A DNA stretch of 39,565 nt from Escherichia phage vB_EcoP_ZX5, in sequence record MW722083.1. One strand, written 5' to 3'. Under the pieces are notes generated by a model. The model was not told the DNA's origin, made no database searches, and worked only from the letters and a program-made list of their open reading frames with translations. The translations under genes and the position numbers were made by a program. This document shows, in pieces, positions 19,648 through 36,358 of the stretch. Within the stretch, counting starts at the first letter, position 1. Each line of letters opens with the position of its first letter.

Positions 19648-20253
19648 ATGGTGGTTATGATGCCTGCTGAACCTAAAACCTATAAACGCAAATCAACGCA
19701 ATTTAAGCCACTAACAGCAATGCAGGAGGCTTATTGCCAGTCATACATCAAAACGCCTGAAAACCAGACTCAGGCAGCGATTAACGCAGGATTCTCTCCA
19801 AATACAGCGGCAGTTAAAGCCAGTGTCATGATGCGCGATGAACGCATTCAAAAACGGATTGCCGAGTTGATGGAGGAGCGCAACAAACGAATGCGCGTCA
19901 GTGCCGATTACGTTCTCATGCGCCTGGTGGAGATCGACCAGATGGACGTGATTGATATCCTCAACGACGATGGGAGCCTTAAGCCAATCCGCGAGTGGCC
20001 GAAAATCTGGCGCACTACGCTTAGCGGCTTTGATCTGTCATCGACCATCATGAACATGAACGAGGATTCGATAGAGACAATCCTCAAAAAAATTAAATGG
20101 CCTGACAAGGTGAAGAACCTCGAACTGATTGGTAAGCACGTCGACGTCAACGCATTCAAAGAACGCCTGGATGTTAATGTGAATGTGACAATTGCTGATC
20201 GCATAGCGGCAGCCAGGAAGCGACTCAAAGAACGTCAGGATGGTAATCAGTGA
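19648..20253 (+). CDS. terS: terminase small subunit
   Basis: 201 aa from ATG 19648; the track start 19579 would span a terminator and operator; position immediately before the large subunit. Confidence 0.7.
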   Translation: MVVMMPAEPKTYKRKSTQFKPLTAMQEAYCQSYIKTPENQTQAAINAGFSPNTAAVKASVMMRDERIQKRIAELMEERNKRMRVSADYVLMRLVEIDQMDVIDILNDDGSLKPIREWPKIWRTTLSGFDLSSTIMNMNEDSIETILKKIKWPDKVKNLELIGKHVDVNAFKERLDVNVNVTIADRIAAARKRLKERQDGNQ

Positions 20254-21725
20254 CAGATACAGCGTTATCTCCTGAAGAGCAGTTGATCGAGGATATTGCA
20301 GGGTTCACTCACGATCCGCTTGGTTATGCCCTCTATGCGTTCCCGTGGGGGGAAGAGGGGACTGAACTGGCACATGCTACCGGCCCACGTCAGTGGCAGG
20401 CTGATGCGTTCCGAGAGATACGTGATCACCTGCAGAATCCAGAGACGCGCTATCAGCCGCTTATGCTGGCACGCGCTTCTGGTCACGGTATTGGTAAATC
20501 CGCATTCATCTCAATGCTGATCAACTGGGGCATGTCCACTTGCGAGGATTGTAAGGTCGTGGTGACCGCCAACACCGACAACCAGCTACGAACGAAGACC
20601 TGGCCGGAAATTATCAAGTGGTCGAACCTTGCTATCACGAAAGACTGGTTTACCTGTACCGCTACCGCGATGTACAGCAATGATCCTGGACACGACAAGC
20701 GGTGGCGAGCTGACGCAATCCCCTGGTCTGAGCACAACACTGAGGCATTCGCCGGACTACACAACGAGCGCAAACGCATCATCGTGGTGTTTGATGAAGC
20801 GTCGAACATTGCGGATCTGGTGTGGGAAGTTGCCGAGGGTGCGCTTACGGACGAAGACACTGAGATTATTTGGGTGGCGTTCGGAAACCCTACACGTAAC
20901 ACCGGGCGTTTTCGCGAATGTTTCCGCAAATATAAACACCGCTGGAAAACTGCGCAGATTGACAGCCGGACGGTGGAAGGCACTAACAAACAGCAGTTGC
21001 AGAAATGGGTTGATGACTACGGGGAAGACAGCGACTTCGTTAAAATCCGTGTGCGTGGCATATTCCCTGATGCATCTGAATTGCAGTTTATCCCTACCGG
21101 TCTTACTGACGAGGCAATGAAACGGGTGGTAACCGCTGCGCAGGTTGCACATGCTCCGGTGATAATCGGCGTTGACCCGGCATACTCCGGCGTTGATGAC
21201 GCTGTGATATACCTGCGGCAGGGGCTACACAGTAAGGTGCTGTGGACTGGCAACAAGACTACCGACGATCTGATTATGGCGAAGCGTATCGCTGACTTTG
21301 AAGACCAGTATCAGGCTGACGCGGTGTTCATCGACTTCGGTTACGGAACCGGTTTGAAGTCAATCGGTGACGGCTGGGGTCGTACATGGCAACTTGTTCC
21401 GTTCGGTGGCGCGTCTACTGACCCGCAGATGCTCAACAAGCGTGGGGAGATGTTCAACTCATGCAAGACATGGCTGAGGCTCGGCGGCATGCTGGATGAC
21501 CAGGAAACAGCGGACGACCTGTCGGCAGCAGAGTACAAAGTTCGAGTGGACGGTAAAATCGTTATCGAACCGAAGGAAGATATCAAAGAGCGACTTGGGC
21601 GTTCTCCTGGTAAAGGCGATGCGCTACTGCTGACGTTTGCGTTCCCTGTGTCGAAGCGTCTGCGAATTCCCGGTCAGCAGAACCAGCAAGGCAAGGCCAT
21701 TACAGATTACGATCCCTATGCTTAA
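20250..21725 (+). CDS. terL: terminase large subunit
   Basis: 491 aa; Walker A-like GHGIGKS and nuclease region; GTG start overlapping the terS stop. Confidence 0.85.
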   Translation: MTDTALSPEEQLIEDIAGFTHDPLGYALYAFPWGEEGTELAHATGPRQWQADAFREIRDHLQNPETRYQPLMLARASGHGIGKSAFISMLINWGMSTCEDCKVVVTANTDNQLRTKTWPEIIKWSNLAITKDWFTCTATAMYSNDPGHDKRWRADAIPWSEHNTEAFAGLHNERKRIIVVFDEASNIADLVWEVAEGALTDEDTEIIWVAFGNPTRNTGRFRECFRKYKHRWKTAQIDSRTVEGTNKQQLQKWVDDYGEDSDFVKIRVRGIFPDASELQFIPTGLTDEAMKRVVTAAQVAHAPVIIGVDPAYSGVDDAVIYLRQGLHSKVLWTGNKTTDDLIMAKRIADFEDQYQADAVFIDFGYGTGLKSIGDGWGRTWQLVPFGGASTDPQMLNKRGEMFNSCKTWLRLGGMLDDQETADDLSAAEYKVRVDGKIVIEPKEDIKERLGRSPGKGDALLLTFAFPVSKRLRIPGQQNQQGKAITDYDPYA

Positions 21726-21775
21726 TCCGTTAGCGGGGATAATGACGGAGATATCCTCTGGTGAGGATAAAACAA

Positions 21776-21800
21776 AGCCAGCTCATCGGCTGGCTGTTTG
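21776..21800. terminator. hairpin between convergent terL and the minus-strand moron
   Basis: 7-bp stem AGCCAGC/GCTGGCT 21776-21782/21789-21795; U-tract better on minus strand. Confidence 0.45.
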
Positions 21801-21811
21801 TGACATGTCAC
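21800..21811. repeat. 12-bp perfect palindrome GTGACATGTCAC (copy 2)
   Basis: exact match 5 bp past the stop of 21816..22154 and abutting the hairpin. Confidence 0.9.
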
Positions 21812-21815
21812 GGTG

Positions 21816-22154
21816 TTATTGCTCGCTTAACTTCTGCTTCAGCAAGTAACCTTCAAGCATCCAGATTTTGTTTACAGCATTCTGCCGGGCAATCTTCCGA
21901 CCAATTTCCGCATCAAAGTTTTCTGGGCTTGCACAGGCGCTCTCTCCGGTGACGGTGAAGCCATTTTGTAGAGTTAATACACAAAATGTCAGCAGAGCCA
22001 AACTGTCGTGATAGTCATCGCCAGTTGCAATAGCTCCATCAGCAGCAGTGAAGTACGTTTCCGCAAGAATAATGCTTTCGATATGGTCTGGCGTAACGCG
22101 CGGGGCGGCTAAACCTTTAGCCTGAATTTCAGATTCAATGTCTTTGTCACTCAT
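21816..22154 (-). CDS. hypothetical protein (possibly N4 gp49 / Sf6 gene 66 family), minus-strand moron in the late region
   Basis: 112 aa with AAGGTGA SD; family guess from recollection only. Confidence 0.5.
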   Translation of the reverse strand: MSDKDIESEIQAKGLAAPRVTPDHIESIILAETYFTAADGAIATGDDYHDSLALLTFCVLTLQNGFTVTGESACASPENFDAEIGRKIARQNAVNKIWMLEGYLLKQKLSEQ

Positions 22155-22170
22155 AGTCTATTCTCACCTT

Positions 22171-22193
22171 AAAAAATGCCCGGCGAACCGGGC
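22171..22193 (-). terminator. terminator-like hairpin immediately upstream of the moron RBS
   Basis: 6-bp stem GCCCGG/CCGGGC 22178-22183/22188-22193, loop CGAA; A6 on plus gives U6 on minus. Confidence 0.45.
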
Positions 22194-22270
22194 GAACTGG
22201 AGGCAATGAGTTATGCCTCCCGTGGCTGTACTGGTTTACAGCATGAAGTCATCGCAATGGCGTCCTGCTG

Positions 22271-22313
22271 TAAAAATGGCGGTGATAGTCCTTCAAGGGA
22301 AACCATCACCGCC
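22271..22313 (-). terminator. tRNA-trailer terminator-like hairpin
   Basis: 8-bp stem GGCGGTGA/TCACCGCC 22278-22285/22306-22313 with 20-nt loop; A-run 22272-22276 on plus gives U-run on minus. Confidence 0.4.
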
Positions 22314-22356
22314 AAGCCCCTGGAACTTCTGGCATCACGGTCCTTAGGCGTGATTC

Positions 22357-22433
22357 TGGCGTGGCATGCAGGATTCGAACCTGCGACCAACCGCTTAGAA
22401 GGCGGTTGCTCTGTCCAGCTGAGCTAATGCCAC
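22357..22433 (-). tRNA. tRNA-Arg (anticodon UCU), CCA encoded
   Basis: 77 nt; acceptor GTGGCAT/ATGCCAC, D-arm GCTC...GAGC, anticodon arm ACCGC-CTTCTAA-GCGGT, T-arm GCAGG-TTCGAAT-CCTGC, discriminator G, CCA. Confidence 0.85.
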
Positions 22434-22755
22434 AACGCTGAGAGCACTTAGCCTGTTAAGGCGCCACACTTTGTCGCGGCTCCATAAATGCTCTCATCGT
22501 TGTACCCTCGTCTCTTCCGAGGCGTCACACCGAATCGCCGGGATGGTGAATCCCCGTGCGCGGAATAAAACCGCTCGACTTGCACATTCCGGCTACCTGG
22601 TTCGTTTGCCCGAGCAAGGGAGGGTGCCCCTTAAACGTATCCAGACCGCTATCGGCGCATGTGCCATACGCCGTACTGCTCAAAATAAAAGCTCACTCCA
22701 CCTGTTCAATTTAACGACAAGCCAGTCAGGTTAGTAACCGGAATGAACTCTTTGG

Positions 22756-22770
22756 TTACCTGAAAGGTAA
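22756..22770. promoter_or_regulatory. palindromic operator-like site TTACCTGAAAGGTAA upstream of the head operon
   Basis: perfect match, identical 17-mer to 2423..2439. Confidence 0.45.
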
Positions 22771-22811
22771 TAATTTGTGCGTTAAATGTCAACTACCTAC
22801 GATAAATAAAT

Positions 22812-22835
22812 CATATGTGGTTAAATTGGTAATAA
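22812..22835 (+). promoter_or_regulatory. conserved promoter-proximal element CATATGTGGTTAAATTGGTAATAA upstream of the head operon
   Basis: 19 of 24 identical to 2467..2490. Confidence 0.4.
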
Positions 22836-22860
22836 TTTAATTGCGTACGGAGTCATTGAT

Positions 22861-23067
22861 ATGTGCATGGGTAGCTCACCATCAGTGCCTGCAACACCAG
22901 AAGTTCAGGCAGCACCACAGGAGCAGGATGCCGCCGTTGTTGATGCCCGCGACGAAGAAACTCGTCGCCGTCGCGCTGCTGCTGGTCGTAGTTCTACGCT
23001 GCTTACCGGTTCTCAGGGCGACACATCAACCGCTAATACCAGCGGTAAAACGCTGCTTGGTCAGTAA
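22861..23067 (+). CDS. small hypothetical virion-module protein
   Basis: 68 aa; ACGGAG SD; its RBS context GGAGTCATTGA is repeated before the portal gene. Confidence 0.45.
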   Translation: MCMGSSPSVPATPEVQAAPQEQDAAVVDARDEETRRRRAAAGRSSTLLTGSQGDTSTANTSGKTLLGQ

Positions 23068-23081
23068 CCGGAGTCATTGAA

Positions 23082-24761
23082 ATGGCGGAAACAACTAAAG
23101 AGCGATTGAACAAACAGTTCGCACAACTTGAAAGCGAGCGTCAGTCGTTCGAGCCGCACTGGCGCGAGTTGAGTGATTACATCAACCCGCGTGGTTCCCG
23201 CTTTCTGACTTCTGAGGTTAACCGTAACGATCGACGCAATACACGCATTATTGATTCGACCGGGACTATGGCGGCGCGCACTCTCGCCAGCGGCATGATG
23301 TCAGGCATCACAAGCCCCGCGCGTCCGTGGTTTCGCCTGGCTACGCCAGATCCTGAAATGATGGATTATGGCCCTGTTAAGTTGTGGCTTGAGGCGGTGC
23401 AGAACCGCATGAACGATATGTTCAATAAGTCGAATCTCTATCAGTCGCTGCCGCAGTTATACGGAAGCCTCGGCACATACAGCACTGGTGCAATGGCAGT
23501 GCTGGAGGATGACGAGGACATCATTCGCACAATGCCATTCCCGATAGGCAGTTACTACCTGGCTAACTCACCTCGTGGCAGTGTGGACACCTGTTTTCGC
23601 AAGTTCTCTATGACTGTTCGTCAGCTTGTTCAGGAGTTCGGGCTAAATAACGTCAGCGAATCCGTAAAAAGCATGTGGGAAAGCGGAACCTACGAGAAGT
23701 GGATTGAAGTGATGCATTCGGTTTACCCGAACATTGACCGCGATACATCGAAGCTGGATAGCAAGAACAAGCCATTCAAATCGGTTTATTACGAGGTTGG
23801 TGGCGATAACGACAAGTTGTTGCGTGAGTCCGGATTCGATGAGTTTCCAATTATGGCTCCGCGCTGGGAAGTTAACGGCGAAGATGTTTATGGATCATCA
23901 TGCCCGGGTATGCTGGCGCTTGGACCTGTTAAGGCATTGCAGCTTCTCCAGAAGCGCAAGTCGCAGTTGATTGATAAAGCCACCAATCCGCCGATGGTTG
24001 CTCCGACTTCCCTCAAGAATCAGCGTGCCTCCCTTCTTCCTGGCGACATCACGTATATCGATCAGATTACTGGTCAGGATGGTTTCAGGCCTGCTTATCT
24101 GGTTAACCCCAGTACAGCAGATTTGGTGGCAGACATTCAGGACACCCGTCAAATCATTAACAGCGCCTACTTTGTCGATCTGTTCATGATGTTGCAGAAC
24201 ATCAATACCCGCTCGATGCCTGTTGAAGCGGTGATCGAAATGAAAGAAGAAAAACTTCTGATGTTGGGGCCGGTTCTGGAGCGTCTGAACGACGAATGTC
24301 TTAATCCTCTCATTGACCGCGCTTTCTCGATGATGGTGCGTAAAAACATGCTGCCGCCACCGCCTGACGCGATGGAAGGTATGCCCCTGAAGGTCGAATA
24401 CATTTCCGTCATGGCTCAGGCGCAGAAGTCTATCGGCCTGTCCAGTCTGGCGTCTACGGTCAACTTCATTGGTCAACTTGCGCAAGCGAAACCAGAAGCT
24501 CTCGACAAACTCAACGTTGATCAGGCGATCGATGCATTCGCTGATATGTCCGGAGTGTCTCCAACCGTCATTGTTCCGCAGGAACAGGTTGAGCAGGCTC
24601 GCCAGCAACGGGCACAGCAACAACAGCAGCAACAAATGATGGCGATGGGGATGGCGGCGGCACAGGGTGCCAAGACGCTAAGCGAAGCTAAAACTTCGGA
24701 TCCGAGTGTTTTGTCAGCTATGGCGAATGCAGTTAGTGGTCAGGGTGGGCAATCACAATGA
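23082..24761 (+). CDS. portal (head-to-tail connector), T7 gp8-like
   Basis: 559 aa; Gln/Ala/Met-rich C-terminus as in T7 gp8 as recalled. Confidence 0.85.
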   Translation: MAETTKERLNKQFAQLESERQSFEPHWRELSDYINPRGSRFLTSEVNRNDRRNTRIIDSTGTMAARTLASGMMSGITSPARPWFRLATPDPEMMDYGPVKLWLEAVQNRMNDMFNKSNLYQSLPQLYGSLGTYSTGAMAVLEDDEDIIRTMPFPIGSYYLANSPRGSVDTCFRKFSMTVRQLVQEFGLNNVSESVKSMWESGTYEKWIEVMHSVYPNIDRDTSKLDSKNKPFKSVYYEVGGDNDKLLRESGFDEFPIMAPRWEVNGEDVYGSSCPGMLALGPVKALQLLQKRKSQLIDKATNPPMVAPTSLKNQRASLLPGDITYIDQITGQDGFRPAYLVNPSTADLVADIQDTRQIINSAYFVDLFMMLQNINTRSMPVEAVIEMKEEKLLMLGPVLERLNDECLNPLIDRAFSMMVRKNMLPPPPDAMEGMPLKVEYISVMAQAQKSIGLSSLASTVNFIGQLAQAKPEALDKLNVDQAIDAFADMSGVSPTVIVPQEQVEQARQQRAQQQQQQQMMAMGMAAAQGAKTLSEAKTSDPSVLSAMANAVSGQGGQSQ

Positions 24762-25054
24762 CAGATTACGAAGACGATCAACTGAAAGAAGAAAACGCCC
24801 GTAAGCAACGTGACATGGCACAGCGTGAAATTGATGACATTTGCTTTGTCATGAGCAGTGAACAGGGGCGTCGCGTTGTCTGGTCGGTGCTGGAGAAAGG
24901 CCGTGTGTTTTCCGCTATCTCACCGATGGACGCTATGGCAATGGCATTTAATGAGGGGCAACGCAATCTGGCGCTGGAACTGTTTCAGCGCGTTATGGCG
25001 CATTGCCCTGAACAGTATTTGAAGATGGCCAAAGAGGCCAGTGAACAGGAGTGA
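24758..25054 (+). CDS. hypothetical protein between portal and scaffold
   Basis: 98-aa ORF with ATGA overlap to the portal stop. Confidence 0.5.
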   Translation: MTDYEDDQLKEENARKQRDMAQREIDDICFVMSSEQGRRVVWSVLEKGRVFSAISPMDAMAMAFNEGQRNLALELFQRVMAHCPEQYLKMAKEASEQE

Positions 25055-25056
25055 TC

Positions 25057-25752
25057 ATGAATTTATTTGAGCGTTTGCTGTATCGCCGTCTTTGCAATGA
25101 GCAACCAGTCGATGGTGGAGCAGCTCCGGCTGCGTCAGAACCGTCAGCGCCTGCAGGTGATAACCCTGCTCCAGTTGGTGATCCATCACAACAGGAAGGT
25201 GATAAGCCACAACCTGTTGCTGATGGCGATAAACCTGCTGATGACAAAAAGCCTGAAAACGATAAGCATGATGAAAAAAAGGACGGCGATAAACCAGAGG
25301 GTGCGCCTGAAAAGTACGAGTTTCAGGCTGCCGAAGGCGTAGAGCTGGATACAGAAGCGTTGAAGGAATTCGAGCCGGTGGCGCGAGAACTAAACCTGAC
25401 CAACGAGCAAGCGCAAAAGCTGGTTGATGCTTATCCGAAGATTCTGGCAGGTGTTCAGCAGCGCCAGGCAGAAGCCTGGCAGAAAACAACCGAGCAGTGG
25501 GCTGCGGATGTAAAAGCCGACAAAGAAATCGGTGGCGACAAGTTGATTTCTAACCTTAGCGCCGCACAGCGTGCGCTTGACCAGTTCGGGACACCTGAAC
25601 TCAAAGAATATCTGAACACCACCGGGCTGGGTAATCACCCTGATCTGGTCAAAACGTTCGTGAAAATCGGAAAGGCGATGTCTGAAGATGGCATGGTCAC
25701 CGGTGGTAATGAAGGCCAGCGTAGTGCGGCCGAAGTGCTCTATGGCAAATAA
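25057..25752 (+). CDS. scaffolding protein
   Basis: acidic Pro/Ala/Asp/Lys-rich N-terminus, helical C-terminus; AGGAG SD before ATG 25057; between portal and capsid. Confidence 0.65.
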   Translation: MNLFERLLYRRLCNEQPVDGGAAPAASEPSAPAGDNPAPVGDPSQQEGDKPQPVADGDKPADDKKPENDKHDEKKDGDKPEGAPEKYEFQAAEGVELDTEALKEFEPVARELNLTNEQAQKLVDAYPKILAGVQQRQAEAWQKTTEQWAADVKADKEIGGDKLISNLSAAQRALDQFGTPELKEYLNTTGLGNHPDLVKTFVKIGKAMSEDGMVTGGNEGQRSAAEVLYGK

Positions 25753-25766
25753 GAGAGGAAATGACA

Positions 25767-26753
25767 ATGGCTGTTAAAGGCTTAACTGCGCTAACGCTGG
25801 CTGACTGGGGTAAGCGCGTCGATCCAAACGGGAAAGTCGATAAGATTATCGAGCTTCTCGGTCAAACTAACCCGATCCTTCAGGATATGCCTTTTGTCGA
25901 AGGGAACCTTCCTACCGGACACCGAACCACCATTCGTTCTGGTTTACCTTCAGCTACCTGGCGTTTGCTGAACTATGGCGTACAGCCAAGCAAATCAACC
26001 ACAGTGCAGGTAACCGATTACGTTGGCATGCTGGAAACCTATGCGGAAGTCGATAAGTCACTGGCTGATCTGAACGGCAATACCGCCGAATTCCGCCTTT
26101 CTGAAGACCGCGCATTTATTGAAGCGATGAATCAGCAGATGGCGCAGACGCTGTTTTATGGTGATTCCAGCGTTAACCCTCAGCAGTTTATGGGACTGTC
26201 CTCCCGCTATTCCAGCCTGTCTGCGGGTAATGCTCAGAACATCATTGATGCTGGTGGCACGGGTACAGATAACACCTCAATCTGGTTAGTGGTGTGGGGC
26301 GAAAACACCGTGCATGGCATCTTCCCGAAAGGGCAGAAGGCTGGCATCCAGATGGAAGATAAAGGCCAGGTGACACTGGAAGATGCTAATGGTGGCAAGT
26401 ACGAAGGCTATCGCACCCATTATAAATGGGATAACGGACTTGCTCTGCGTGACTGGCGTTATGTTGTTCGCATTGCAAACATCGATGTCAGCAATCTTTC
26501 AGAACCTTCCTCTGCCGCAAATATTGCGAAGTTGATGGTTAAAGCACTGCATCGCATTCCAAACCGTGGCATGGGCCGCCCGGTGTTCTACATGAACCGC
26601 ACTGTAGGCCAGGCTCTTGATCTGCAATCTCTGGAGAAAACATCTCTGGCTATCAGCGTAAAAGAGACAGAAGGCGAGTGGTGGACTTCATTCCGTGGTG
26701 TACCAATCCGTGAAACTGATGCGCTTCTGGAAACAGAAGCCCGCGTGGTCTAA
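25767..26753 (+). CDS. major capsid protein
   Basis: about 328 aa after the scaffold gene; AGAGAGG SD; size and position typical. Confidence 0.8.
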   Translation: MAVKGLTALTLADWGKRVDPNGKVDKIIELLGQTNPILQDMPFVEGNLPTGHRTTIRSGLPSATWRLLNYGVQPSKSTTVQVTDYVGMLETYAEVDKSLADLNGNTAEFRLSEDRAFIEAMNQQMAQTLFYGDSSVNPQQFMGLSSRYSSLSAGNAQNIIDAGGTGTDNTSIWLVVWGENTVHGIFPKGQKAGIQMEDKGQVTLEDANGGKYEGYRTHYKWDNGLALRDWRYVVRIANIDVSNLSEPSSAANIAKLMVKALHRIPNRGMGRPVFYMNRTVGQALDLQSLEKTSLAISVKETEGEWWTSFRGVPIRETDALLETEARVV

Positions 26754-26804
26754 CGCCTGTTATTAACCTGTGGGTCGTAACAGACCCACTAATGGAGAAA
26801 GAAG

Positions 26805-27242
26805 ATGATCACCGACAAACTGTTGATGTTCTCAGAAGCTCAGGCGGTTACGAATACCGCGGCTTCTACTGACGTAATCGATCTCGGTCCAATTGACGGA
26901 AAACGTCGTGATATCGGCGTGGGTTACCCGCTTGAGTTTTGGGCGCTGGTTAACACAGCCGCCGCAGCAAGCGGTGATGCAACTGTAAACATCCAGTTGC
27001 AGACGAGTGAGGATAACAGCTCATGGACCACTATTTATGATAGTGGTGCACTGGCAAAGACCGCCCTGACAGCAGGTAAACGAGTTGTTTCTGCAAAGGT
27101 GCCTGCCGGTGTTCAGCGATATCTGCGTGTTAACTACTCCGTCGCAACTGGCCCACTAACGGCTGGCGAATTCACTGCGGGTATCAGTCTTGATGTTGAT
27201 GCCAATACGCCGTATCCGATCCGCTCAAAAGTAACTGGTTAA
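26805..27242 (+). CDS. capsid decoration / accessory head protein
   Basis: 145-aa ORF after capsid with GGAGAAAG SD. Confidence 0.45.
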   Translation: MITDKLLMFSEAQAVTNTAASTDVIDLGPIDGKRRDIGVGYPLEFWALVNTAAAASGDATVNIQLQTSEDNSSWTTIYDSGALAKTALTAGKRVVSAKVPAGVQRYLRVNYSVATGPLTAGEFTAGISLDVDANTPYPIRSKVTG

Positions 27243-27252
27243 GGTGATATCG

Positions 27253-27582
27253 ATGTCAGGTGAGAAACCAAGATACCGCGTTCTGCGCCTCTCTCATATC
27301 CATAACACTCTGTGGCCGGAGGGGGCAGAAATCGAATACGAAGGTGAGCCTGGTAGCGCACTGGAACCTGTTAACGATGCAGCCAGACAGGCAAAAGTTG
27401 CAGGAAAGGTGTCAATGGCAGCAACCAGCACCAAAATCATCAACGATGTGTCAGATGATGGTGAACTGGATAAGCTCCGTGAAGAGTACGAATTGCTCTT
27501 TAACGAGAAGCCACACCATAACGCCAAAGCAGAAACGCTCCGCGAGAAGATCGCAGATAAGCGTAAAGAACTGGGCGTGTAA
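27253..27582 (+). CDS. small hypothetical structural-module protein
   Basis: ATG 27253 with AAGGTGA SD. Confidence 0.45.
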   Translation: MSGEKPRYRVLRLSHIHNTLWPEGAEIEYEGEPGSALEPVNDAARQAKVAGKVSMAATSTKIINDVSDDGELDKLREEYELLFNEKPHHNAKAETLREKIADKRKELGV

Positions 27583-27598
27583 GCCTCGCGAATCAGAC

Positions 27599-27620
27599 AA
27601 GGGGCTTCGGCCCCTTTATT
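27599..27620 (+). terminator. terminator/attenuator-like hairpin after the head gene block
   Basis: 7-bp stem AAGGGGC/GCCCCTT with loop TTCG followed by TTATT. Confidence 0.4.
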
Positions 27621-27632
27621 GCAGGAGTGTAT

Positions 27633-27956
27633 ATGGAACTCGTAAACCTCAAAACCGGCACTGACAGCTACCAGGATGAGAGCGGAGAAACCAGAACTCG
27701 CGATGAATACCCGTGGGGGCTGTGCATCACTCTTAATAACGACACATTGAATAAGCTGAAGGCGCAACCTCAGGGCGTCGGAACAGAAGTGATGATAACT
27801 GCAAAAGCTGTTATTCGAGGCCTGTCTGCCAGAGAAACTGACGATGGTGTTAATCGCAGCGCCGATCTGCAGATCACTGATATGGCGATCGCTCCTGTTT
27901 CCGGGGATGTAGAAAAATCAGCGGCTGAAACCCTGTACGGCAATGGGGGTGAGTAA
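27633..27956 (+). CDS. hypothetical structural protein
   Basis: 107 aa; AGGAG SD; TAATG overlap with the next gene. Confidence 0.45.
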   Translation: MELVNLKTGTDSYQDESGETRTRDEYPWGLCITLNNDTLNKLKAQPQGVGTEVMITAKAVIRGLSARETDDGVNRSADLQITDMAIAPVSGDVEKSAAETLYGNGGE

Positions 27957-28561
27957 TGGCCTCTGTAGTAGAGATCTGCAATCGTGCGCTGTCCAATATT
28001 GGCAACAGCCGCAGTATTAACAGCCTGACGGAAGCCAGCAAGGAAGCGGGGGAATGTTCGCTGCACTTTGAGGCCTGCCGTGATGCTGTGCTTTCTGATT
28101 TTGACTGGAACTTTGCTACCAAACGCGTGGCGCTTGCAGATACGAGCAATCCACCGCCTGACTGGGAATATGCGTATCAGTACCCGTCCGATTGTCTGCG
28201 CATTACTGAAATTATGCTTCCTGGTGTACGCAATCCAACAGCAGCAATGCGCGTTCAGTACGAAGTTGGTGCAGACACCAACGGAACAGGAAAGTTGATC
28301 TACACAGACCAGCCGCAGGCATGGCTCAAGTATGTCTCTCGCGTTTCAGATGTGAACATGTTTGATGCCATTTTTATGGAGGCGTTGGCCTGGCGTCTTG
28401 CGGCAGCTATTAACATGGCGCTGACTGGGAATGCAGACCTCGGTACGTTTGCCCTCAATATGTACAATCGCGTGATTCTTAGTGCTGGCTCGCATAGCCA
28501 GAATGAATCACAGGAACCACTGCCACCGGTTGACGAGTTTACCATTGCGAGGTTGTCCTGA
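27956..28561 (+). CDS. tail tubular protein A (T7 gp11-like)
   Basis: 201 aa; N-terminal pattern parallels T7 gp11 as recalled; precedes the gp12-like gene. Confidence 0.65.
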   Translation: MASVVEICNRALSNIGNSRSINSLTEASKEAGECSLHFEACRDAVLSDFDWNFATKRVALADTSNPPPDWEYAYQYPSDCLRITEIMLPGVRNPTAAMRVQYEVGADTNGTGKLIYTDQPQAWLKYVSRVSDVNMFDAIFMEALAWRLAAAINMALTGNADLGTFALNMYNRVILSAGSHSQNESQEPLPPVDEFTIARLS

Positions 28562-31032
28562 TGGCTATCAGTTGGATCCAGCCCAGCTTTGCAGGTGGTG
28601 AGATTGGACCGTCGTTGTACGGTCGTATTGACATGGCGAAGTACCAGGTGGCATTGCGCAAGTGCGATAACTTTATCGTGCGGCAGTATGGCGGAGTTGA
28701 GAATCGACCTGGTACGCGTTTTGTCGGTGCCGCCAAATACCCAAATCGGAAATGCCGCCTGATCCCGTTCCAGTTCTCGACGGTTCAGACTTATGCTCTG
28801 GAGTTCGGACACCAGTACATGCGCGTTATCAAAGATGGTGCGTTGGTGCTGAACAGCAGCAATGTTATTTATGAAATTTCCACGCCATATACTGAAACCG
28901 ATCTGTTCCGAATTAAATTCACGCAAAGCGCAGACGTGCTTACGCTGGTTCATCCGGCATACCCGCCGAAAGAGTTGCGCCGCTATGCGCATGACAACTG
29001 GCAACTGGTTGATGTGGTAACGAAGAACGGGCCATTTGAAGATATCAATATTGACGAGTCAGTGACGGTTTATGCCAGCGCCAGCACCGGGACAATTACG
29101 CTAACGGCAAGCGCCTCTATTTTTGGCGCGGAGCAGGTAGGCAAATTGTTCTATCTGGAACAGCCTGCAGTGGATTCTGTGCCGGTATGGGAAACCAGTA
29201 AGAGTACGTCGATTGGCGATATTCGCCGAGCAGACAGTAACTACTATCGCGCCGTTAAAGCAGGCAAAACAGGTACTTTGCGCCCTTCGCATACAGAAGG
29301 CACATCATGGGATGGCTGGGGCGGATCCGGTGATGATGATACTGGCATTGAGTGGGAATATCTGCACAGTGGTTTTGGCATTGCCCGTATCACTGCTGCA
29401 AATGGAACTACTGCAACTGCCGAGGTGATTTCCTATATCCCTTCGCAGGTAGTTGGCGAGGATAATGCCAGCTATAAATGGGCTAAATATGCCTGGAACA
29501 GTGTTAATGGTTATCCTGGCACTGTTGTTTATTATCAACAACGTCTTTACTTCGCCGCATCGACTGCGTTTCCTCAGACTATCTGGGCCAGCCGTACCGG
29601 GGATTATAAGGATTTTGGCAAAAGCAATCCTACGCAGGATGACGACAGAATTATCTACACCTATGCCGGGCGTCAGGTTAATGAGATCCGCCACCTGATT
29701 GATGTTGGTTCGCTGGTGGCGCTGACTTCCGGAGGTGAGTACGTCATCACTGGCGACCAGAACAAAGTGCTTACCCCATCATCATTTGCATTCAGCTCTC
29801 AGGGATCAAATGGCTCGAGCAATGTCCCACCAATTGCCGTGGCGAATATTGCTCTGTTCGTCCAGGAGAAAGGCAGTGTTGTCCGTGATCTGGCCTACTC
29901 ATTCGATGTTGACGGCTATCAGGGGAACGACCTGACCATCCTTGCCAATCATCTTTTTCAGAAGCACAGTATTGTTGACTGGTGCTTCTCTATTGTCCCT
30001 TACTCCAGCGCCTTCTGCATTCGTGATGACGGTAAATTACTGGTGATGACCTATTTGCGTGATCAGCAGGTTTTTGCATGGGCACCACAGTCCAGTACCG
30101 GAAAATATGAAAGCACATGCAGTATCAGCGAAGGAAATGAAGATGCGGTGTATTTCGTCGTTAACCGAACCGTTAACGGGCAAACAGTGAGATACATCGA
30201 GCGACTGTCCAGCCGTTTATTTACCAGCGATGAAGATGCTTTCTTTGTTGATTCTGGCCTTAGCTATGATGGAAGAAATACGTCTGACAGAACGATGACC
30301 ATCACTGGTGGTTCTGGTGAATGGGATTACCGCGCGGAATATACAATCAGTGTTTCTGGTGGTGCGTACTTCACCAGTAGTGATGTCGGCGCGCAACTAC
30401 AGTTCCCTTATACCGGAACTGATCCTGATACTGGTGATGAGGTGTCAAAAGAATTACGTTGCGACATTATTTCTGTAACCAGCAATACCGCTGTAGTGGT
30501 TCGTGCTAACAGGAACGTCCCGCCATCCCTCAGGAATGTGGCCACCACGAACTGGCAGATGGCGCGCCGGACATTTGGAGGCCTGTCTCATCTTGAAGGC
30601 CAGACCGTAAACATTCTCTCTGATGCGAACGTGGAACCACAGAAAGTGGTTTCCGGAGGTGCCGTCACGCTGGAATCTCCGGGGGCTGTAGTTCACATCG
30701 GCCTGCCAATAACTGCTGAATTCGAAACACTGGATATCAACATTAACGGACAGGAAACGCTGCTGGACAAAAAACAGGTGATCCCGTCCGTTACTCTGGT
30801 TGTGAATGCCAGCCGCGGCATCTGGGCGACTACGCCCGGCGGTAAATGGTACGAATATCCACAGCGTGAATTCGAGTTCTACGATGATCCTGTTGATGAT
30901 GCTACCGGAAAAGTAGAAGTGAAACTGGACAGTAACTGGGGCAAAAACGGACGTGTAAAAATCCGTCAGCTTGACCCGTTGCCGCTGTCTGTTCTTGCCG
31001 TTATTCCTCGCCTTACTGTTGGGGGATTCTGA
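28561..31032 (+). CDS. tail tubular protein B (T7 gp12-like)
   Basis: 823 aa; size, position and N-terminal pattern resemble T7 gp12 as recalled. Confidence 0.7.
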   Translation: MAISWIQPSFAGGEIGPSLYGRIDMAKYQVALRKCDNFIVRQYGGVENRPGTRFVGAAKYPNRKCRLIPFQFSTVQTYALEFGHQYMRVIKDGALVLNSSNVIYEISTPYTETDLFRIKFTQSADVLTLVHPAYPPKELRRYAHDNWQLVDVVTKNGPFEDINIDESVTVYASASTGTITLTASASIFGAEQVGKLFYLEQPAVDSVPVWETSKSTSIGDIRRADSNYYRAVKAGKTGTLRPSHTEGTSWDGWGGSGDDDTGIEWEYLHSGFGIARITAANGTTATAEVISYIPSQVVGEDNASYKWAKYAWNSVNGYPGTVVYYQQRLYFAASTAFPQTIWASRTGDYKDFGKSNPTQDDDRIIYTYAGRQVNEIRHLIDVGSLVALTSGGEYVITGDQNKVLTPSSFAFSSQGSNGSSNVPPIAVANIALFVQEKGSVVRDLAYSFDVDGYQGNDLTILANHLFQKHSIVDWCFSIVPYSSAFCIRDDGKLLVMTYLRDQQVFAWAPQSSTGKYESTCSISEGNEDAVYFVVNRTVNGQTVRYIERLSSRLFTSDEDAFFVDSGLSYDGRNTSDRTMTITGGSGEWDYRAEYTISVSGGAYFTSSDVGAQLQFPYTGTDPDTGDEVSKELRCDIISVTSNTAVVVRANRNVPPSLRNVATTNWQMARRTFGGLSHLEGQTVNILSDANVEPQKVVSGGAVTLESPGAVVHIGLPITAEFETLDININGQETLLDKKQVIPSVTLVVNASRGIWATTPGGKWYEYPQREFEFYDDPVDDATGKVEVKLDSNWGKNGRVKIRQLDPLPLSVLAVIPRLTVGGF

Positions 31033-31496
31033 TGATCGATGTTCGAATTATTCCCGCTACCGAAGAGCATCTTCAGATGATTTTGCCGGATGTTCGTCAG
31101 GCTGATATTGACGAACTGTATGCGGTATCGCTGATGACTACCGAAGATGCGCTGCGTGTTGGTCTGCGCACTGCGACTATGGCCTGGTCAGGGTTCGCGA
31201 ACGGAGAGCTGGTAACCATGTTTGGTGTATCTCCGGCGTCAATGATCGGTGGCAATGGTACGCCATGGCTGGTCGGGACCAGCCGTATTGAAAAATATCA
31301 GAAGACATTTCTGCGCCACTGCCGCCCTGTATTGCAGCAGATGCTGGCAGTTTATCCGCGCCTGGAAAACTATGTCGACGAGCGAAACCATGTTGCCAAA
31401 GCATGGCTGCACTGGCTTGGATTCAGGCTTGAAGAAGCCGCGCCTTATGGTGCTCTTGGTCTTAATTTCCACAGATTTCACATGGAGAGAAAATAA
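31032..31496 (+). CDS. hypothetical virion protein (internal virion protein A position)
   Basis: 154-aa ORF coupled by ATGA to the upstream gene. Confidence 0.45.
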   Translation: MIDVRIIPATEEHLQMILPDVRQADIDELYAVSLMTTEDALRVGLRTATMAWSGFANGELVTMFGVSPASMIGGNGTPWLVGTSRIEKYQKTFLRHCRPVLQQMLAVYPRLENYVDERNHVAKAWLHWLGFRLEEAAPYGALGLNFHRFHMERK

Positions 31497-32041
31497 TGTG
31501 CGATCCGGTTATTGCTGGTGGCGCAATGCTCGCCATGAGTGGCATTCAGGCATACACCCAGTACCAACAGGGAAAGTATGCCTCGAAGGTTGCAGAAGCG
31601 AACGCAGATATAGCCACAGCTCAGGCAAATGATGCAATAAACAGAGGTAACGCTGAAGCTGAGCAACGGCGCAGAGAGACCCGACAGCGGCTTGGTACAC
31701 AGGCGGCGACAATGGGGGCTACCGGCGCTGATTTATCTACAGGTAACGCGCTGGATATATTTGGCGACACTGCCCAGTTTGGCGCTCTTGATTCTCTGAC
31801 GACGGTGAATAACGCGCAACGCGAGGCTTACGGTTATCAGGTTCAGGCTGCCAACTATAAAGCAGAAGCCAGTTCAGCCCGTAAACAGGGGAATGTGGGA
31901 GCAGCAACAACATTGCTCACTGCGCCTCTGAAGGCATACGGTGCGTACCAGATGTTTGGTGGGACGTGGAGTCCGTTTACTCAAAGCACCCCTGCGCCAA
32001 TCGGGGCAGCAGCAGGAACCAGATTACCCGGAGGATTATAA
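31496..32041 (+). CDS. internal virion protein B-like (T7 gp14-like)
   Basis: 181 aa; begins MC, Ala/Gln-rich, similar size to T7 gp14. Confidence 0.55.
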   Translation: MCDPVIAGGAMLAMSGIQAYTQYQQGKYASKVAEANADIATAQANDAINRGNAEAEQRRRETRQRLGTQAATMGATGADLSTGNALDIFGDTAQFGALDSLTTVNNAQREAYGYQVQAANYKAEASSARKQGNVGAATTLLTAPLKAYGAYQMFGGTWSPFTQSTPAPIGAAAGTRLPGGL

Positions 32042-34554
32042 TGCCAGTCGTACCAACAGTATCCGGCCGTCAGGTTCAGAGCCGTGGAGTTCAGTCAGCA
32101 GGCTTGCAGACGTTTTCTCAGCCAGGTATTGGTGATGCTTTTGTTCGGGCAGGGACAGAGGCAATTGATGTTTTTGGTCAGGCAAAACAGCGTGCCAATA
32201 TCGCTCTGGCTCAGGAGGCATCTCTTAACCTCAGTCAGATAAGCAGTGATCTGCTGAATAATCCTGAAACAGGATTGCTTAACCTGAAAGGGAAAAATGC
32301 TATTGGAAAAGGTCAGGAGTATACGCAGCAGTTTGATGCTCAGGTCGAACAACTGGCTATGTCGCTGCCGGATGAACAGGCTCGTAATGCTTTCATGCAG
32401 CAGGCGCAGCAGCAGCGCATTCAGTTCACTACGCAGGCCGGGCGGCACGAGATAGGGCAAATAAATGCCTACGAAGAAGGCCAGTTTCAGGCTACGCTGC
32501 TGAACAATGGTAAAAATGCCGCAGCATTGTATGGCGACAACGCCGCATACGTATTGGCTAATAAGCAAACTTTCCAGCAAATTGAGGATTACGGCATTGC
32601 ACATGGCTGGAGTGACGAGCAAATCCAGGCCAAGAAAATCGAGTTTAAAGAGAAGGTTGCTGATGCTGCATTGTCCCAGTGGTCGGCAAACAATGCGACC
32701 GCATTCATCCAAAGTAATGGCGAGTTAAGTGATACTGCTGCTGGAGCTCGCCGTGCTGTAGCAGATAGTGACTCTTCCGAGCGTGCCCGTGGCATACGCA
32801 ACAATAACCCAGGAAATCTCGAATACAGCAAAACTAATCCGTGGGTAGGCCAGACCGGTGATGATGGTCGATTTGCTAAATTCGAAACACCTGAACACGG
32901 GATTCGTGCATTAGGGCGGAACCTGATGTCGTATCAGAGGCAGGGTATTGATACCGTCAGCGAGATAATTAATCGCTGGGCACCGCCTACTGATAAAAAT
33001 GACACTATGTCGTATATCAAAGCAGTGTGCGAACAACTTGGCGTTTCTGCTGATGAGCCTCTCGATGCATCTAATCCTGATACCCTGAAGGCGCTTTGTG
33101 CAGCCATTATCCATCATGAGAACGGTAGCCAGCCATACAGTGATCAGCAGTTAACTGCTGGTGTCAGTGCAGCACTTGGTTTATCAACAATTCCAACCAA
33201 CACCAAACGCTATACCGGTAATGCAGCATTCGATGCGGCATCTCCTGAGGCGCAGGCAAGTTTTATGCGACAGGCGGATCAACTGCGTCGGCAGCAGCAG
33301 GCTGAATATAAAACGATGATTGACAGCCAGGTTCGCGATGCGACAGCTGCGTATATGCGTGGCGTTGAATTTCCTAACCCACCTGGTGAGGCTGATTTTA
33401 TTGCAGCTTATGGAGTAAGAGAAGGAAACCTGCGATATACCGAGTTCAGAAATACGCAAATCGCCGGACAGTATATAGGCTCTTTCCGCAACATGCCGAC
33501 AAGCAGCATTACAGCATATGTTGAGCAATTACGCCCGGATACTGGTGAGACAGGGGAGGGTTATGCGGCACGAGCCGCTCTTTATGACAACGTTGTGTCG
33601 GCTGCAAGTCAGGTGATAAAGCAGCGACAGGCTGATCCTGTACAGTTCTCTCTTGCCGCCGGACAGGCAAAGCCTATCGACATGAGCAATAAGGATAACT
33701 TTGGACAGAGCGTTGCCTTGCGTGCTGCTCAGGTCAGTGACCTTGCTAAGTCATATGGCACTCCACTGACGTTCTTTTCCAAAGACGAGGCCAATCAGAT
33801 CGGTGTTTTCTTTCGTGATGCGCCCGTTTCCCAACAGGCAGCATATCTCGATACCATCAGGCAGAGCACTGGTGGTGGGCAGGTGTATATGTCAGCACTA
33901 CAGCAGATCAGTGCCAACGCTCCATCTGCTGCCGTTGCCGGGATACTGATGGATAAGCCAGGTGGTATTTTGGCAGAAAAAAACTGGTTTAATCCGGATG
34001 TTTCCGTGTCTCCAGAAACCGCTGCGCAGACAATTCTTGCTGGCGCGGCGGCTCGTAAAGGTACTGATGACGCGAAAGGTATTCCGATGCCTAAAGATGC
34101 TGATCTTCGCCTTGAGTTTTCTGACATGGTGAAGAATGCATTTGCTGGTGATGCTCAGGGGGCATCAATGGCATACGAGATCGCAAAGGACTATTACGCT
34201 GGTGTGATGGCGAAAAAAGGCGTGGTATCAGGCGAAATTGACAATGATATCTGGAAACAGGCTGTTAACGTAGCTACAGGTGGCGTGCATGACTATAACG
34301 GAATGGGGAATGTTCTTTTGCCGTGGGGAATGTCTGCAGAGCAATTCGATAAGCAGGTTAATCAGGCTTGGAATGAACAAGTTGTTGGCACAGGGATAAA
34401 AACACCGCCTGGTCAGTATGGTTTGCAAAGTTACGGCGATAGTCAGTACCTGGTGAAACTTGGTACTGGTTATCTGCTAAAAGATGATGGTTCTCCCGTT
34501 GTTCTTGATCTGACACAGAAGCGTCAGAGATTCTCCGGAGATATTCCGCAATGA
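32041..34554 (+). CDS. internal virion / ejection protein with a possible enzymatic domain
   Basis: 837 aa from ATG 32041 (TAATG overlap); RGIRNNNPGNLEY motif near nt 32790. Confidence 0.6.
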   Translation: MPVVPTVSGRQVQSRGVQSAGLQTFSQPGIGDAFVRAGTEAIDVFGQAKQRANIALAQEASLNLSQISSDLLNNPETGLLNLKGKNAIGKGQEYTQQFDAQVEQLAMSLPDEQARNAFMQQAQQQRIQFTTQAGRHEIGQINAYEEGQFQATLLNNGKNAAALYGDNAAYVLANKQTFQQIEDYGIAHGWSDEQIQAKKIEFKEKVADAALSQWSANNATAFIQSNGELSDTAAGARRAVADSDSSERARGIRNNNPGNLEYSKTNPWVGQTGDDGRFAKFETPEHGIRALGRNLMSYQRQGIDTVSEIINRWAPPTDKNDTMSYIKAVCEQLGVSADEPLDASNPDTLKALCAAIIHHENGSQPYSDQQLTAGVSAALGLSTIPTNTKRYTGNAAFDAASPEAQASFMRQADQLRRQQQAEYKTMIDSQVRDATAAYMRGVEFPNPPGEADFIAAYGVREGNLRYTEFRNTQIAGQYIGSFRNMPTSSITAYVEQLRPDTGETGEGYAARAALYDNVVSAASQVIKQRQADPVQFSLAAGQAKPIDMSNKDNFGQSVALRAAQVSDLAKSYGTPLTFFSKDEANQIGVFFRDAPVSQQAAYLDTIRQSTGGGQVYMSALQQISANAPSAAVAGILMDKPGGILAEKNWFNPDVSVSPETAAQTILAGAAARKGTDDAKGIPMPKDADLRLEFSDMVKNAFAGDAQGASMAYEIAKDYYAGVMAKKGVVSGEIDNDIWKQAVNVATGGVHDYNGMGNVLLPWGMSAEQFDKQVNQAWNEQVVGTGIKTPPGQYGLQSYGDSQYLVKLGTGYLLKDDGSPVVLDLTQKRQRFSGDIPQ

Positions 34555-36353: not shown

Positions 36354-36358
36354 ATTAA

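Follow-up and report, generated by a model that had tools for sequence, protein, structure and literature searches.

A conserved pseudoknotted RNA ahead of a phage tRNA-Arg gene, shared with phage P1 and N-less lambdoid phages

What is the long leader that precedes a transfer RNA (tRNA) gene on the minus strand of Escherichia phage vB_EcoP_ZX5? An initial annotation of this phage had described, antisense to the late genes around it, a tRNA-Arg(UCU) gene behind some 320 nucleotides (nt), 22434-22755, which it left unexplained. We analyzed this locus within the window, by which we mean the whole 39,565-nt stretch of record MW722083.1. The window is ~98-99% identical to Escherichia phage phiV10 and its relatives (BLAST), and its sequence identifies it as a phiV10/epsilon15-like podovirus of the genus Uetakevirus. 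We found that the leader, drawn as a single stretch in the initial annotation, in fact has two parts: a variable 5' leader of ~85 nt, whose sequence is not conserved among epsilon15-like phages, and a 3' part of 240 nt (22673-22434) that is a conserved, strand-specific, pseudoknotted RNA, composed of a core of ~170 nt and a closing helix, P6. The features that had been listed at this locus are all present at, or a few bases from, the positions originally given (Table 1).

The elements of the RNA are listed in Table 1 from 5' to 3'. Hairpins P1 and P2 are separated by an invariant AGCGGUC, and the 19-mer that follows P2 is invariant among eight relatives derived from BLAST. Every relative has a hairpin at the position of P3, differing in sequence and length. 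In the pseudoknot, the loop of helix A (UCACCA) pairs with a downstream GGUG; an invariant GGCGRU lies between the pseudoknot and P5, and P6 terminates one base 5' of tRNA nucleotide 1. We examined this fold in an alignment of 44 representatives that are mutually less than 93% identical, and found standard pairs in 95.0% of the cells on the structure, compared to 28-55% when the pairing partners were slid. Compensatory changes on both sides were observed in 13 out of 27 pairs, and the number of double-change cells (100, versus 32 ± 5 in shuffles) was attained in none of 500 shuffles. Specifically, alignment pair 11-23 in P1 is A-U in 24 sequences and G-C in 19, pairs 37-95, 38-94, and 39-93 in P2 are each changed on both sides, and the same holds for three of the four pairs of pseudoknot helix A. 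Pair 154-174 in helix B is C-G in 40 sequences and A-U in four, with an AACC/GGUU variant elsewhere, and P6 occurs in the compensatory forms GAGAGCA/UGCUCUC, GAGCGCA/UGCGCUC, and UAAGAGC/GCUCUUU. More than 140 cells hold G-U pairs (for example, pairs 9-25, 12-22, 35-97, and 148-162). Because these would be A-C mismatches on the opposite strand, the RNA is read from the minus strand of the window. The window copy itself folds with z = -3.3 relative to shuffles.

RNAalifold also returned an alternative pairing, in which the loop and 3' strand of P1 (GCACAU...CCG) pair with the 19-mer (AUGUGC...CGG). Both pairings open to this strand, local and with the 19-mer, are 97-100% pairable, and the longer-range one shows no covariation since both of its sides are invariant. 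As modeled, a conformational switch between the P1 hairpin and the P1/19-mer helix is possible. Separately, we observed that the 19-mer (22579-22597) starts with GGUAGC, which we take to be the same hexamer as in the RfaH ops/JUMPStart element (GGCGGTAGCGTG); the upstream C required for the ops hairpin is absent.

The initial annotation had seen no convincing open reading frame (ORF) in the leader, and our comparison agrees: no conserved ORF was found in 22434-22755, where the listed ORFs agree between relatives over the first ~25 residues and then lose frame. The most conserved block carries a 1-nt indel (alignment column 29) and the hairpins differ in length by non-multiples of three, and hence no reading frame is conserved. 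Public records place hypothetical proteins on the plus strand at 22176-22427, antisense to the tRNA and to terminator T1, and at 22471-22734, over the structured RNA; further calls of this sort are mEp460 gp37 and phiV10 p04. These protein calls are very probably spurious.

We next turn to where else this RNA occurs. A BLAST search with 22434-22860 showed that the 3' ~240 nt of the leader have ~82% identity to unannotated DNA of unrelated lambdoid phages (mEp460, cdtI, Ayreon, 2H10, and Stx2c converting phages), and that the first ~165 nt of the structured RNA have ~80% identity to phages P1 and P7. A homology search of the leader against bacterial genomes, as the initial annotation had suggested, located the element in 1840 out of 5426 complete E. 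coli genomes (34%), with 554 places on plasmids, P1-like plasmids included; no annotated feature lies beneath the match in any E. coli genome among the matches listed. An exact scan of IMG/VR with the 19-mer gave at least 120 loci. When one genome per species was scanned with a different motif, we obtained 22 true matches, of which 21 carry the exact 19-mer and 21 belong to Enterobacterales, the exception being a metagenome-assembled genome labeled Bacillota. The nhmmer profile of the core parts true from chance matches cleanly.

Searches for a known family gave no candidate. Against Rfam 15, positions 21500-23200 of the window matched only tRNA at E <= 1, and 12 diverse relatives had no match on the element at the gathering threshold, so that known Rfam 15 families (GOLLD, ROOL, C4, IsrK, riboswitches, and ribozymes) could be set aside. 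The 19-mer sequence was found in no paper of the literature collection searched. Literature searches on put-like and antiterminator RNAs gave no description of the element, the mEp phage paper treating a different, N-like system, and a 2026 survey of prophage Pas small RNAs and STnc100 does not describe the core. The structured RNA is apparently a widespread, undescribed family. No system in biology is better studied than E. coli and its phages, and still an RNA of complex fold, present in 34% of complete genomes of this species, in phage P1, and in Shiga-toxin phages, has apparently escaped annotation and description. It merits a family entry, which would also correct the spurious hypothetical-protein calls over the element in many records. 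With regard to this stretch, the initial annotation had offered three possibilities: that it is a long leader, that it is a processed RNA, or that foreign sequence was captured there. A mobile structured module that ends exactly at the 5' end of the tRNA, an RNase P site, bears these out in spirit.

The element is found in three contexts, each under an early promoter that is repressor-controlled or annotated with a repressor: epsilon15-like phages, phage P1, and lambdoid prophages that lack N. Among the first 131 loci, 29 have tRNA-Arg(UCU) immediately 3' of the element, 18 have tRNA-Ile(CAU) immediately 5', and 84, mostly lambdoid, have no adjacent tRNA. In phage P1 the order is tRNA-Ile, element, ban, within the C1-controlled ban operon. 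In the N-less lambdoid phages (for example, mEp460, cdtI, Stx2a, and Stx2c), a strong terminator lies 3' of the element. The upstream ORF is a CI-type repressor in 64 of the 111 loci that have an upstream ORF, at a median of 154 nt from the element (including mEp460, mEp390, a phage recorded as infecting Stenotrophomonas, cdtI, and Stx2a_WGPS2). Here the order is cI, its terminator, and a promoter flanked by operator sequences repeated from between cI and cro (ATGTACC...ATACAT in the Stx2c phage and TTGC-N7-GCAA in mEp460). Since this operator-flanked promoter precedes the element, the element is the first feature of the pL transcript. The promoter 5' of the element scores 11/12 in the Stx2c phage, and the annotators of phage Ayreon independently placed a promoter there. 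More generally, a promoter-like site (>=9/12) lies at most 160 nt upstream in 52% of distinct loci, at a median of 53 nt, versus 2.6% of control windows, a 20-fold difference.

Downstream of the core, 114 out of 122 loci have a strong intrinsic terminator. The junction GUU|GUGG, followed by a tRNA or by a cloverleaf-like domain closed by GUGG...CCAC, is present in 109 out of 153 loci, and in ~83% of loci a tRNA, a tRNA-like domain, or a domain resembling the small RNA STnc100 lies directly beside the core. We found no promoter-like site between the terminator and the first early-left gene in the loci scanned, and the element is co-oriented with the downstream genes wherever we checked. The records of mEp460, Ayreon, Stx2a_WGPS2, and cdtI annotate no N gene, and the first downstream ORFs gave no Pfam match to N. 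Two placements differ from this pattern: in phage SopranoGao the element lies 3' of the lysis genes, with a possible promoter of its own, and at locus L028 (3998-4959, minus strand) the core occurs twice in tandem within a single pL operon, with an accessory ORF in the opposite orientation after each copy.

Several further observations concern these leaders. Salmonella phage ST64B (L208) has, just 3' of a pL-like promoter, an element of ~65 nt (9873-9937, minus strand) with the closing stem CAGCGAA...UUCGCUG. In 48 phage records, those of SfV, SfII, SfIV, mEp237, Pectobacterium ZF40, Yersinia YeP1, and Providencia phages among them, this element is found at 80-95% conservation and without annotation, and it lies 5' of the core in ~11 of the collected loci. 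It may be another leader RNA; its fold is not significant (z = -0.7). Right after the pL-leader terminator of mEp460 (L005, 3432-3520), and also in the Stx2c phage (L006) and in ST64B, there is a long, largely perfect stem with a base of ~20 base pairs (bp) and z = -7.5. This stem is maintained by compensatory changes that distinguish the mEp460 type from ST64B, and it could be an RNase III site 5' of the first early-left gene.

Table 1. Features of the minus-strand unit, from the promoter to the last terminator (window coordinates).
Feature	Position	Strand	Basis
Predicted early promoter, TTGACA 22792-22787, 17 nt, TACCTT 22769-22764	22764..22792	-	conservation, hexamer scan
Variable 5' leader	22676..22757	-	~85 nt in the window, ~25 nt in SPN9TCW, ~220 nt in epsilon15
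Conserved core (P1, P2, 19-mer, P3, pseudoknot, P5)	22504..22675	-	nhmmer profile, 112 bits, E = 1e-32
P1 hairpin, CGGCGUAUG-GCA-CAUGCGCCG, 9 pairs	22653..22673	-	alignment
P2, long hairpin of variable length	22596..22645	-	covarying base CUGG/CCAG, CCGG/CCGG, CCAC/GUGG
Invariant 19-mer, GGUAGCCGGAAUGUGCAAG	22579..22597	-	relatives
P3, small variable hairpin, GCGG-UUUUAUU-CCGC	22560..22574	-	read from sequence
H-type pseudoknot	22528..22554	-	helix A 22554-22551 with 22543-22540; helix B CACC 22548-22545 with GGUG 22531-22528
P5 hairpin, CCUCG-GAAGAGA-CGAGG	22506..22522	-	both-side changes in 4/5 pairs
P6 closing helix, 22501-22489 with 22446-22434, variable insert within	22434..22501	-	compensatory variants
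tRNA-Arg, anticodon UCU (tct), encoded CCA	22357..22433	-	ARAGORN; Rfam tRNA model
Trailer hairpin, AUCACG-N9-CGUGAU	22334..22354	-	kept in 26 distinct loci; one compensatory variant, CACA/UGUG
Intrinsic terminator T1, 15-bp stem 22314-22277, then U-tract	22272..22314	-	terminator scan
Hairpin UUUACAGCA...UGCUGUAAA, overlapping T1 U-tract	22235..22274	-	predicted fold; sequence conserved
Hairpin GGGAGGCA...UGCCUCC, without U-tract	22199..22220	-	sequence, predicted fold
Intrinsic terminator T2, GCCCGG-UUCG-CCGGGC + U6, 6 G-C pairs, stem 22193-22178	22171..22193	-	terminator scan
112-aa accessory ORF, PF13876 (Phage_gp49_66; N4 gp49 / Sf6 gp66)	21816..22154	-	Pfam
Terminator T3, between ORF stop and end of large terminase gene	21776..21795		terminator scan (minus strand); annotated terminator in phiV10

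In the window, the RNA is part of a minus-strand unit in which promoter, leader, tRNA-Arg(UCU), T1, two hairpins, T2, an ORF of the PF13876 family, and T3 follow one another. The unit is flanked by the large terminase gene (20250-21725, plus strand) on one side, and on the other by an ORF of 68 amino acids (aa) and then the portal gene (23082-24761, PF12236). The layout is the same in the Salmonella phages SPN9TCW/SPN1S and in Klebsiella phages, which makes the unit a conserved feature of the genus and not a recent insertion; the term moron, which had been applied to it, does not hold in the sense of a recent acquisition. Its content is mosaic: the ORF slot varies, and in epsilon15 a single deletion has removed the core, the tRNA, and half of T1. 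In epsilon15 (L004, 1812-1863), only helix P1 and the start of P2 are left, fused to the 3' half of T1, and the deletion endpoints lie in a 13-nt repeat (UUCCCUUGAUGCU) that is common to the P2 loop and the T1 loop in Salmonella relatives (compared with L002 and window 22277-22645). Pyrimidine-rich motifs of this kind occur in other P2 loops and terminator loops too, but as a general feature a motif shared by the two loops was rejected, the enrichment being weak (16% of loci at p <= 0.05).

The tRNA had been described as well formed, and it is: the Rfam tRNA model (RF00005) gives it 71.7 bits (gathering score 29; E = 2.9e-15), it has a discriminator G plus CCA and an A at position 20, and ARAGORN finds no other tRNA in the window. 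As a phage-encoded, argU-like tRNA-Arg(UCU), it is a standard rare-codon type and in itself unremarkable; only its fusion to a structured leader sets it apart. AGA codons amount to 6.7 per 1000 across the ORFs of the window, which is ~3 times the E. coli average. They are concentrated in the tailspike, ejection-protein, and accessory genes, with clusters at 2542-5661 (an ORF of 1039 aa with 17 AGA codons) and at 34551-38833 (large ORFs near the right end of the window), and are absent from the terminase, portal, and adjacent head-gene ORFs (20250-27242). The comparison of AGA usage in late genes with that of the host, proposed in the initial annotation, thus shows enrichment overall and none in the head genes that flank the unit. 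This distribution fits a tRNA-Arg that supplies a rare codon.

T1, T2, and T3 each consist of a G+C-rich hairpin followed by a U-tract, and the region has four terminator-like sites compared to 1.5 ± 1.0 in shuffles. The two terminator-like hairpins and the third hairpin noted earlier correspond to T1, T2, and 22220-22199. The trailer hairpin, T1, and T2 are kept with compensatory changes over 26 distinct epsilon15-like loci. The T1 stem covaries between subfamilies (GAUGG/CUAUC, GGCAG/CUGACC, and ACCAG/CUGGU), and its GGCGG stem start is found again in lambdoid relatives. In epsilon15, T2 has the compensatory form GCCCAC/GUGGGC, and the hairpin at 22199-22220 varies in sequence, yet epsilon15 retains a hairpin there. 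The three points on which the initial annotation had staked its description, namely a tRNA that passes covariance scoring, a leader that is more than a degraded ORF, and conserved hairpins, have thus come out in its favor.

The 112-aa ORF, which had been placed with its ribosome-binding site directly at the last hairpin, is a good member of PF13876 (118.3 bits, cut-off 27, E = 2e-34), and its ribosome-binding site (AAGGTGAG) lies immediately 3' of T2. In other epsilon15-like phages the slot holds an unrelated 168-aa protein (SPN9TCW) or a DUF2829 protein, the latter after the tRNA and terminators of Klebsiella phage ST512-KPC3phi13.3 (L003, 1969-2490). A distinct downstream ORF from another collected locus matches PF11195 (Thoeris anti-defence 2 / Tad2-like). 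The slot may be an early-expressed anti-defense hotspot.

On the promoter side, the hexamer scan scores the predicted promoter at 9/12, and a stricter scan of the region does not list it. A candidate operator, the palindrome TTACCT-TTC-AGGTAA (22770-22756), overlaps this promoter at the -10 hexamer. It is conserved together with both hexamers in phiV10, SPN9TCW, a Klebsiella phage, and epsilon15, and in the epsilon15 record the corresponding intergenic region bears annotations of a repressor site and an IHF site. The whole divergent intergenic region (22756-22860) is nearly invariant in the E. coli, Salmonella, and Klebsiella members of the genus; in it, a ATTATTACC motif is repeated that may mark operators of the two divergent promoters.

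What does the RNA do? We tentatively favor the reading that it acts in cis and allows RNA polymerase to pass T1 and T2, with RNase P cutting at the tRNA junction. Upon infection or induction, the early promoter would fire and the RNA would fold co-transcriptionally, the 3' strand of P1 pairing either locally or with the 19-mer. The target of the folded core would then be either RNA polymerase itself, as it transcribes, or a conserved host factor of elongation or termination. The complex would pass T1 and T2 and reach the accessory gene; among the N-less lambdoid relatives, the terminator passed would be the one that separates pL from the whole early-left operon. Cleavage by RNase P at the P6/tRNA junction would free the AGA-decoding tRNA and give the leader RNA a defined 3' end. 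Such a mechanism would resemble that of HK022 put RNA or of the rrn leader, although the RNA belongs to neither family. We favor it because of the position of the element, the absence of N, the co-orientation with downstream genes, and the epsilon15 deletion, which took away the core and the 5' half of T1 together. That the 19-mer is nearly invariant in phages of different hosts fits a conserved host partner. The junction lies precisely at tRNA nucleotide +1, where we infer that RNase P cleaves. For phage LLS, which has the same yfdP/yfdQ early-left gene set, the authors noted that there is no N and suggested an unidentified put-like RNA (PMC12315714). The RNA described here may explain how lambda-like phages without N read through their early terminators.

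It is important to weigh a number of observations that point away from read-through in cis. Each phage has one copy, with none near pR: nhmmer found no second core in the window or in the loci spanning cro and pR, and there is one place per phage record among the BLAST matches listed. ST64B has the same leader architecture (P6, tRNA-like/STnc100-like domain, terminator, and long hairpin) without the core, and the conserved 65-nt leader element co-occurs with the core in the ~11 loci mentioned above; the core is therefore not the sole candidate antiterminator. The terminator is co-conserved and moves with the module, as would be expected of a self-contained RNA gene, and the tandem core copies of L028 share one operon. 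In phage P1 the element is 2.3 kb from the promoter, in SopranoGao it sits beyond the lysis genes, and in epsilon15 T2 is retained despite the loss of the core. A bolder proposal, which we consider doubtful at present, is that the core represents a new class of large pseudoknotted phage RNA that on its own reprograms a universally conserved host machine, most plausibly RNA polymerase. We are just as reserved about its corollary, an RNA-only early antitermination distinct from put in N-less lambdoid prophages (Stx2a and Stx2c), phage P1, and epsilon15-like phages. If true, this would affect early-left gene expression of the Stx2a and Stx2c Shiga-toxin prophages.

The most serious alternative, possible if rather unlikely, is that the unit is a self-contained non-coding RNA gene whose product is the promoter-to-T1 transcript, with RNase P and the terminator setting free a stable, trans-acting RNA of ~240-330 nt. 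With the same reservation, such an RNA would have a conserved protein or machine of the host as its binding partner, for instance in host takeover or anti-defense, like 6S, Y RNA, or RNAs of the GOLLD/ROOL type. This would account for the joint movement of promoter, RNA, tRNA or small-RNA-like domain, and homologous GGCGG-stem terminator between unrelated phages, and for the defined ends of the RNA, which are given by the GUU|GUGG junction and by the tRNA-Ile directly 5' in 18 loci. The long invariant single-stranded segments are suited to protein binding, the SopranoGao copy and the tandem copies speak for autonomy, and both the DUF2829 protein in the Klebsiella accessory slot and the separate PF11195 match are in line with it. 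On the other hand, the copy in phage P1 lacks P6 and the terminator and is embedded in the leader of the ban mRNA, the element was in every case checked co-oriented with and 5' of protein genes that have no promoter of their own, and no partner protein is known. A trans-acting role would mean a new immediate-early phage RNA with a conserved host target.

The core could also serve the stable RNA downstream of it, by aiding the expression, folding, processing, or protection from Rho of the tRNA-Arg or small-RNA-like domain, and this we consider improbable. The frequency with which such domains lie beside the core, the long and untranslated nature of all these units, and the ~3-fold enrichment of AGA in the phage, by which tRNA supply would matter, are compatible with this role. 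However, phage P1 has its tRNA 5' and a protein gene 3' of the element, no known tRNA leader comes near the complexity of a 170-nt RNA with a pseudoknot and an invariant 19-mer, and RNase P, to our knowledge, requires no such leader.

Attenuation-type control had been suggested in the initial annotation, and in its fullest form the core would be a riboswitch-like sensor of a small molecule or of the state of the cell, with the P1/19-mer switch setting termination at T1/T2. The two mutually exclusive pairings of the P1 3' strand and the co-conserved terminator are what such a device would need, and in the cdtI/Stx2c subfamily 13 bp can form between the 19-mer and the terminator, at the loop and 3' strand of the latter (z about -3 to -4). 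We nonetheless consider this very improbable. An entire tRNA, or a domain of 110-210 nt, lies between the core and the terminator, the long-range P1/19-mer pairing is without covariation, both of its sides being invariant, and complementarity between the 19-mer and the terminator is missing from most subfamilies (median z = -0.2; window z = -1.1). Pairing of this kind, with a terminator ~236 nt after the core (8 + 5 bp, a 3-nt bulge, ~-26 kcal/mol), was seen only in the cdtI/mEp460/Stx2c subfamily (L006, L061, L070, and others), and we rejected it as a general feature. Local attenuation as such thus finds no support, given that the conserved RNA and T1 are a whole tRNA apart; some form of control over terminator read-through is still the leading idea. 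Finally, we give next to no credence to a degraded ORF or inert captured DNA with hairpins by chance, which several public records might suggest by annotating hypothetical proteins there on either strand, and which is effectively refuted by the frame-breaking indels, the unconserved frames, the strong covariation, and the conservation across unrelated phage types and 1840 E. coli genomes.

How does this RNA compare with known systems? A likeness to the prophage small RNAs STnc100/PasD is seen in ST64B, where a tRNA-like domain between P6 and the terminator (L208, 9465-9583, minus strand) gives a sub-threshold match to STnc100 (35.1 bits against a gathering score of 47, E = 8e-6). This match suggests that the slot held by the tRNA in the window can also hold an Hfq-type small RNA, and STnc100-type small RNAs may also arise from pL leaders. 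STnc100 (RF02076) has no match in the window or in mEp460, and we rejected the Pas and STnc100 small RNAs as the element itself: they occupy different loci, the STnc100 match is a neighboring module in ST64B only, and PasB lies between tail genes. Like the C4 RNA of phages P1 and P7 and the CI RNA of phage P4, the element would be a regulatory RNA in an early leader with its end set, as we infer, by an RNase P-type junction. However, the Rfam C4 model misses it, its size and fold differ, and we found no target sites complementary to it. Genuine C4 and IsrK RNAs do occur in the same lambdoid relatives, at other positions: in mEp460 (L005, 706-894) and the Stx2c phage (L006, 776-964; minus strand), C4 antisense and IsrK-like RNAs lie beside an antirepressor-like gene in the early-right operons, a cluster that is a P1 immI-type module inside lambdoid phages. 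With GOLLD and ROOL, which often adjoin tRNA genes, the element shares this trait, as well as being borne by phages or prophages and elaborately folded, whereas it has no Rfam match to either, is much smaller, and occurs in Enterobacterales rather than mainly in Gram-positive hosts.

Parallels are also found among antitermination systems. As in rrn leaders, the element precedes untranslated stable-RNA genes (tRNAs), and it sits at the genomic position of lambda nutL, whereas no N gene is annotated or detected in the lambdoid relatives checked. The sole boxA-like string, UGCUCU, falls within the 3' strand of P6 and is paired there; a boxA function is unlikely because this string covaries as part of that helix. 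We rejected the element as a homologue of HK022 put: the core profile gives only E > 1 (nhmmer) against HK022 23500-32000, that is, no similarity to the pL/pR region, HK022 is not among the BLAST matches listed, the architecture differs, and there is no second copy 3' of pR. While the put RNAs are ~70 nt long with two stem-loops (PMC9378689), the element has ~170-240 nt with five helices and a pseudoknot. It is also single in each phage and found in phage P1 and podoviruses, whereas HK022 has both putL and putR. Nevertheless, like put, it is promoter-proximal in the pL leader of N-less lambdoid phages and 5' of terminators, it needs no phage protein gene between promoter and terminator, and it would act in cis on RNA polymerase if read-through is indeed its function. 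For HK022 put, antitermination in cis depends on the zinc-binding domain of the beta-prime subunit of RNA polymerase. The element thus occupies the nutL/N position of lambda in a large N-less lambdoid group, for which specialists had guessed at a put-like mechanism (PMC12315714), and the question of N-less read-through becomes testable with a defined RNA, defined mutations, and simple reporters.

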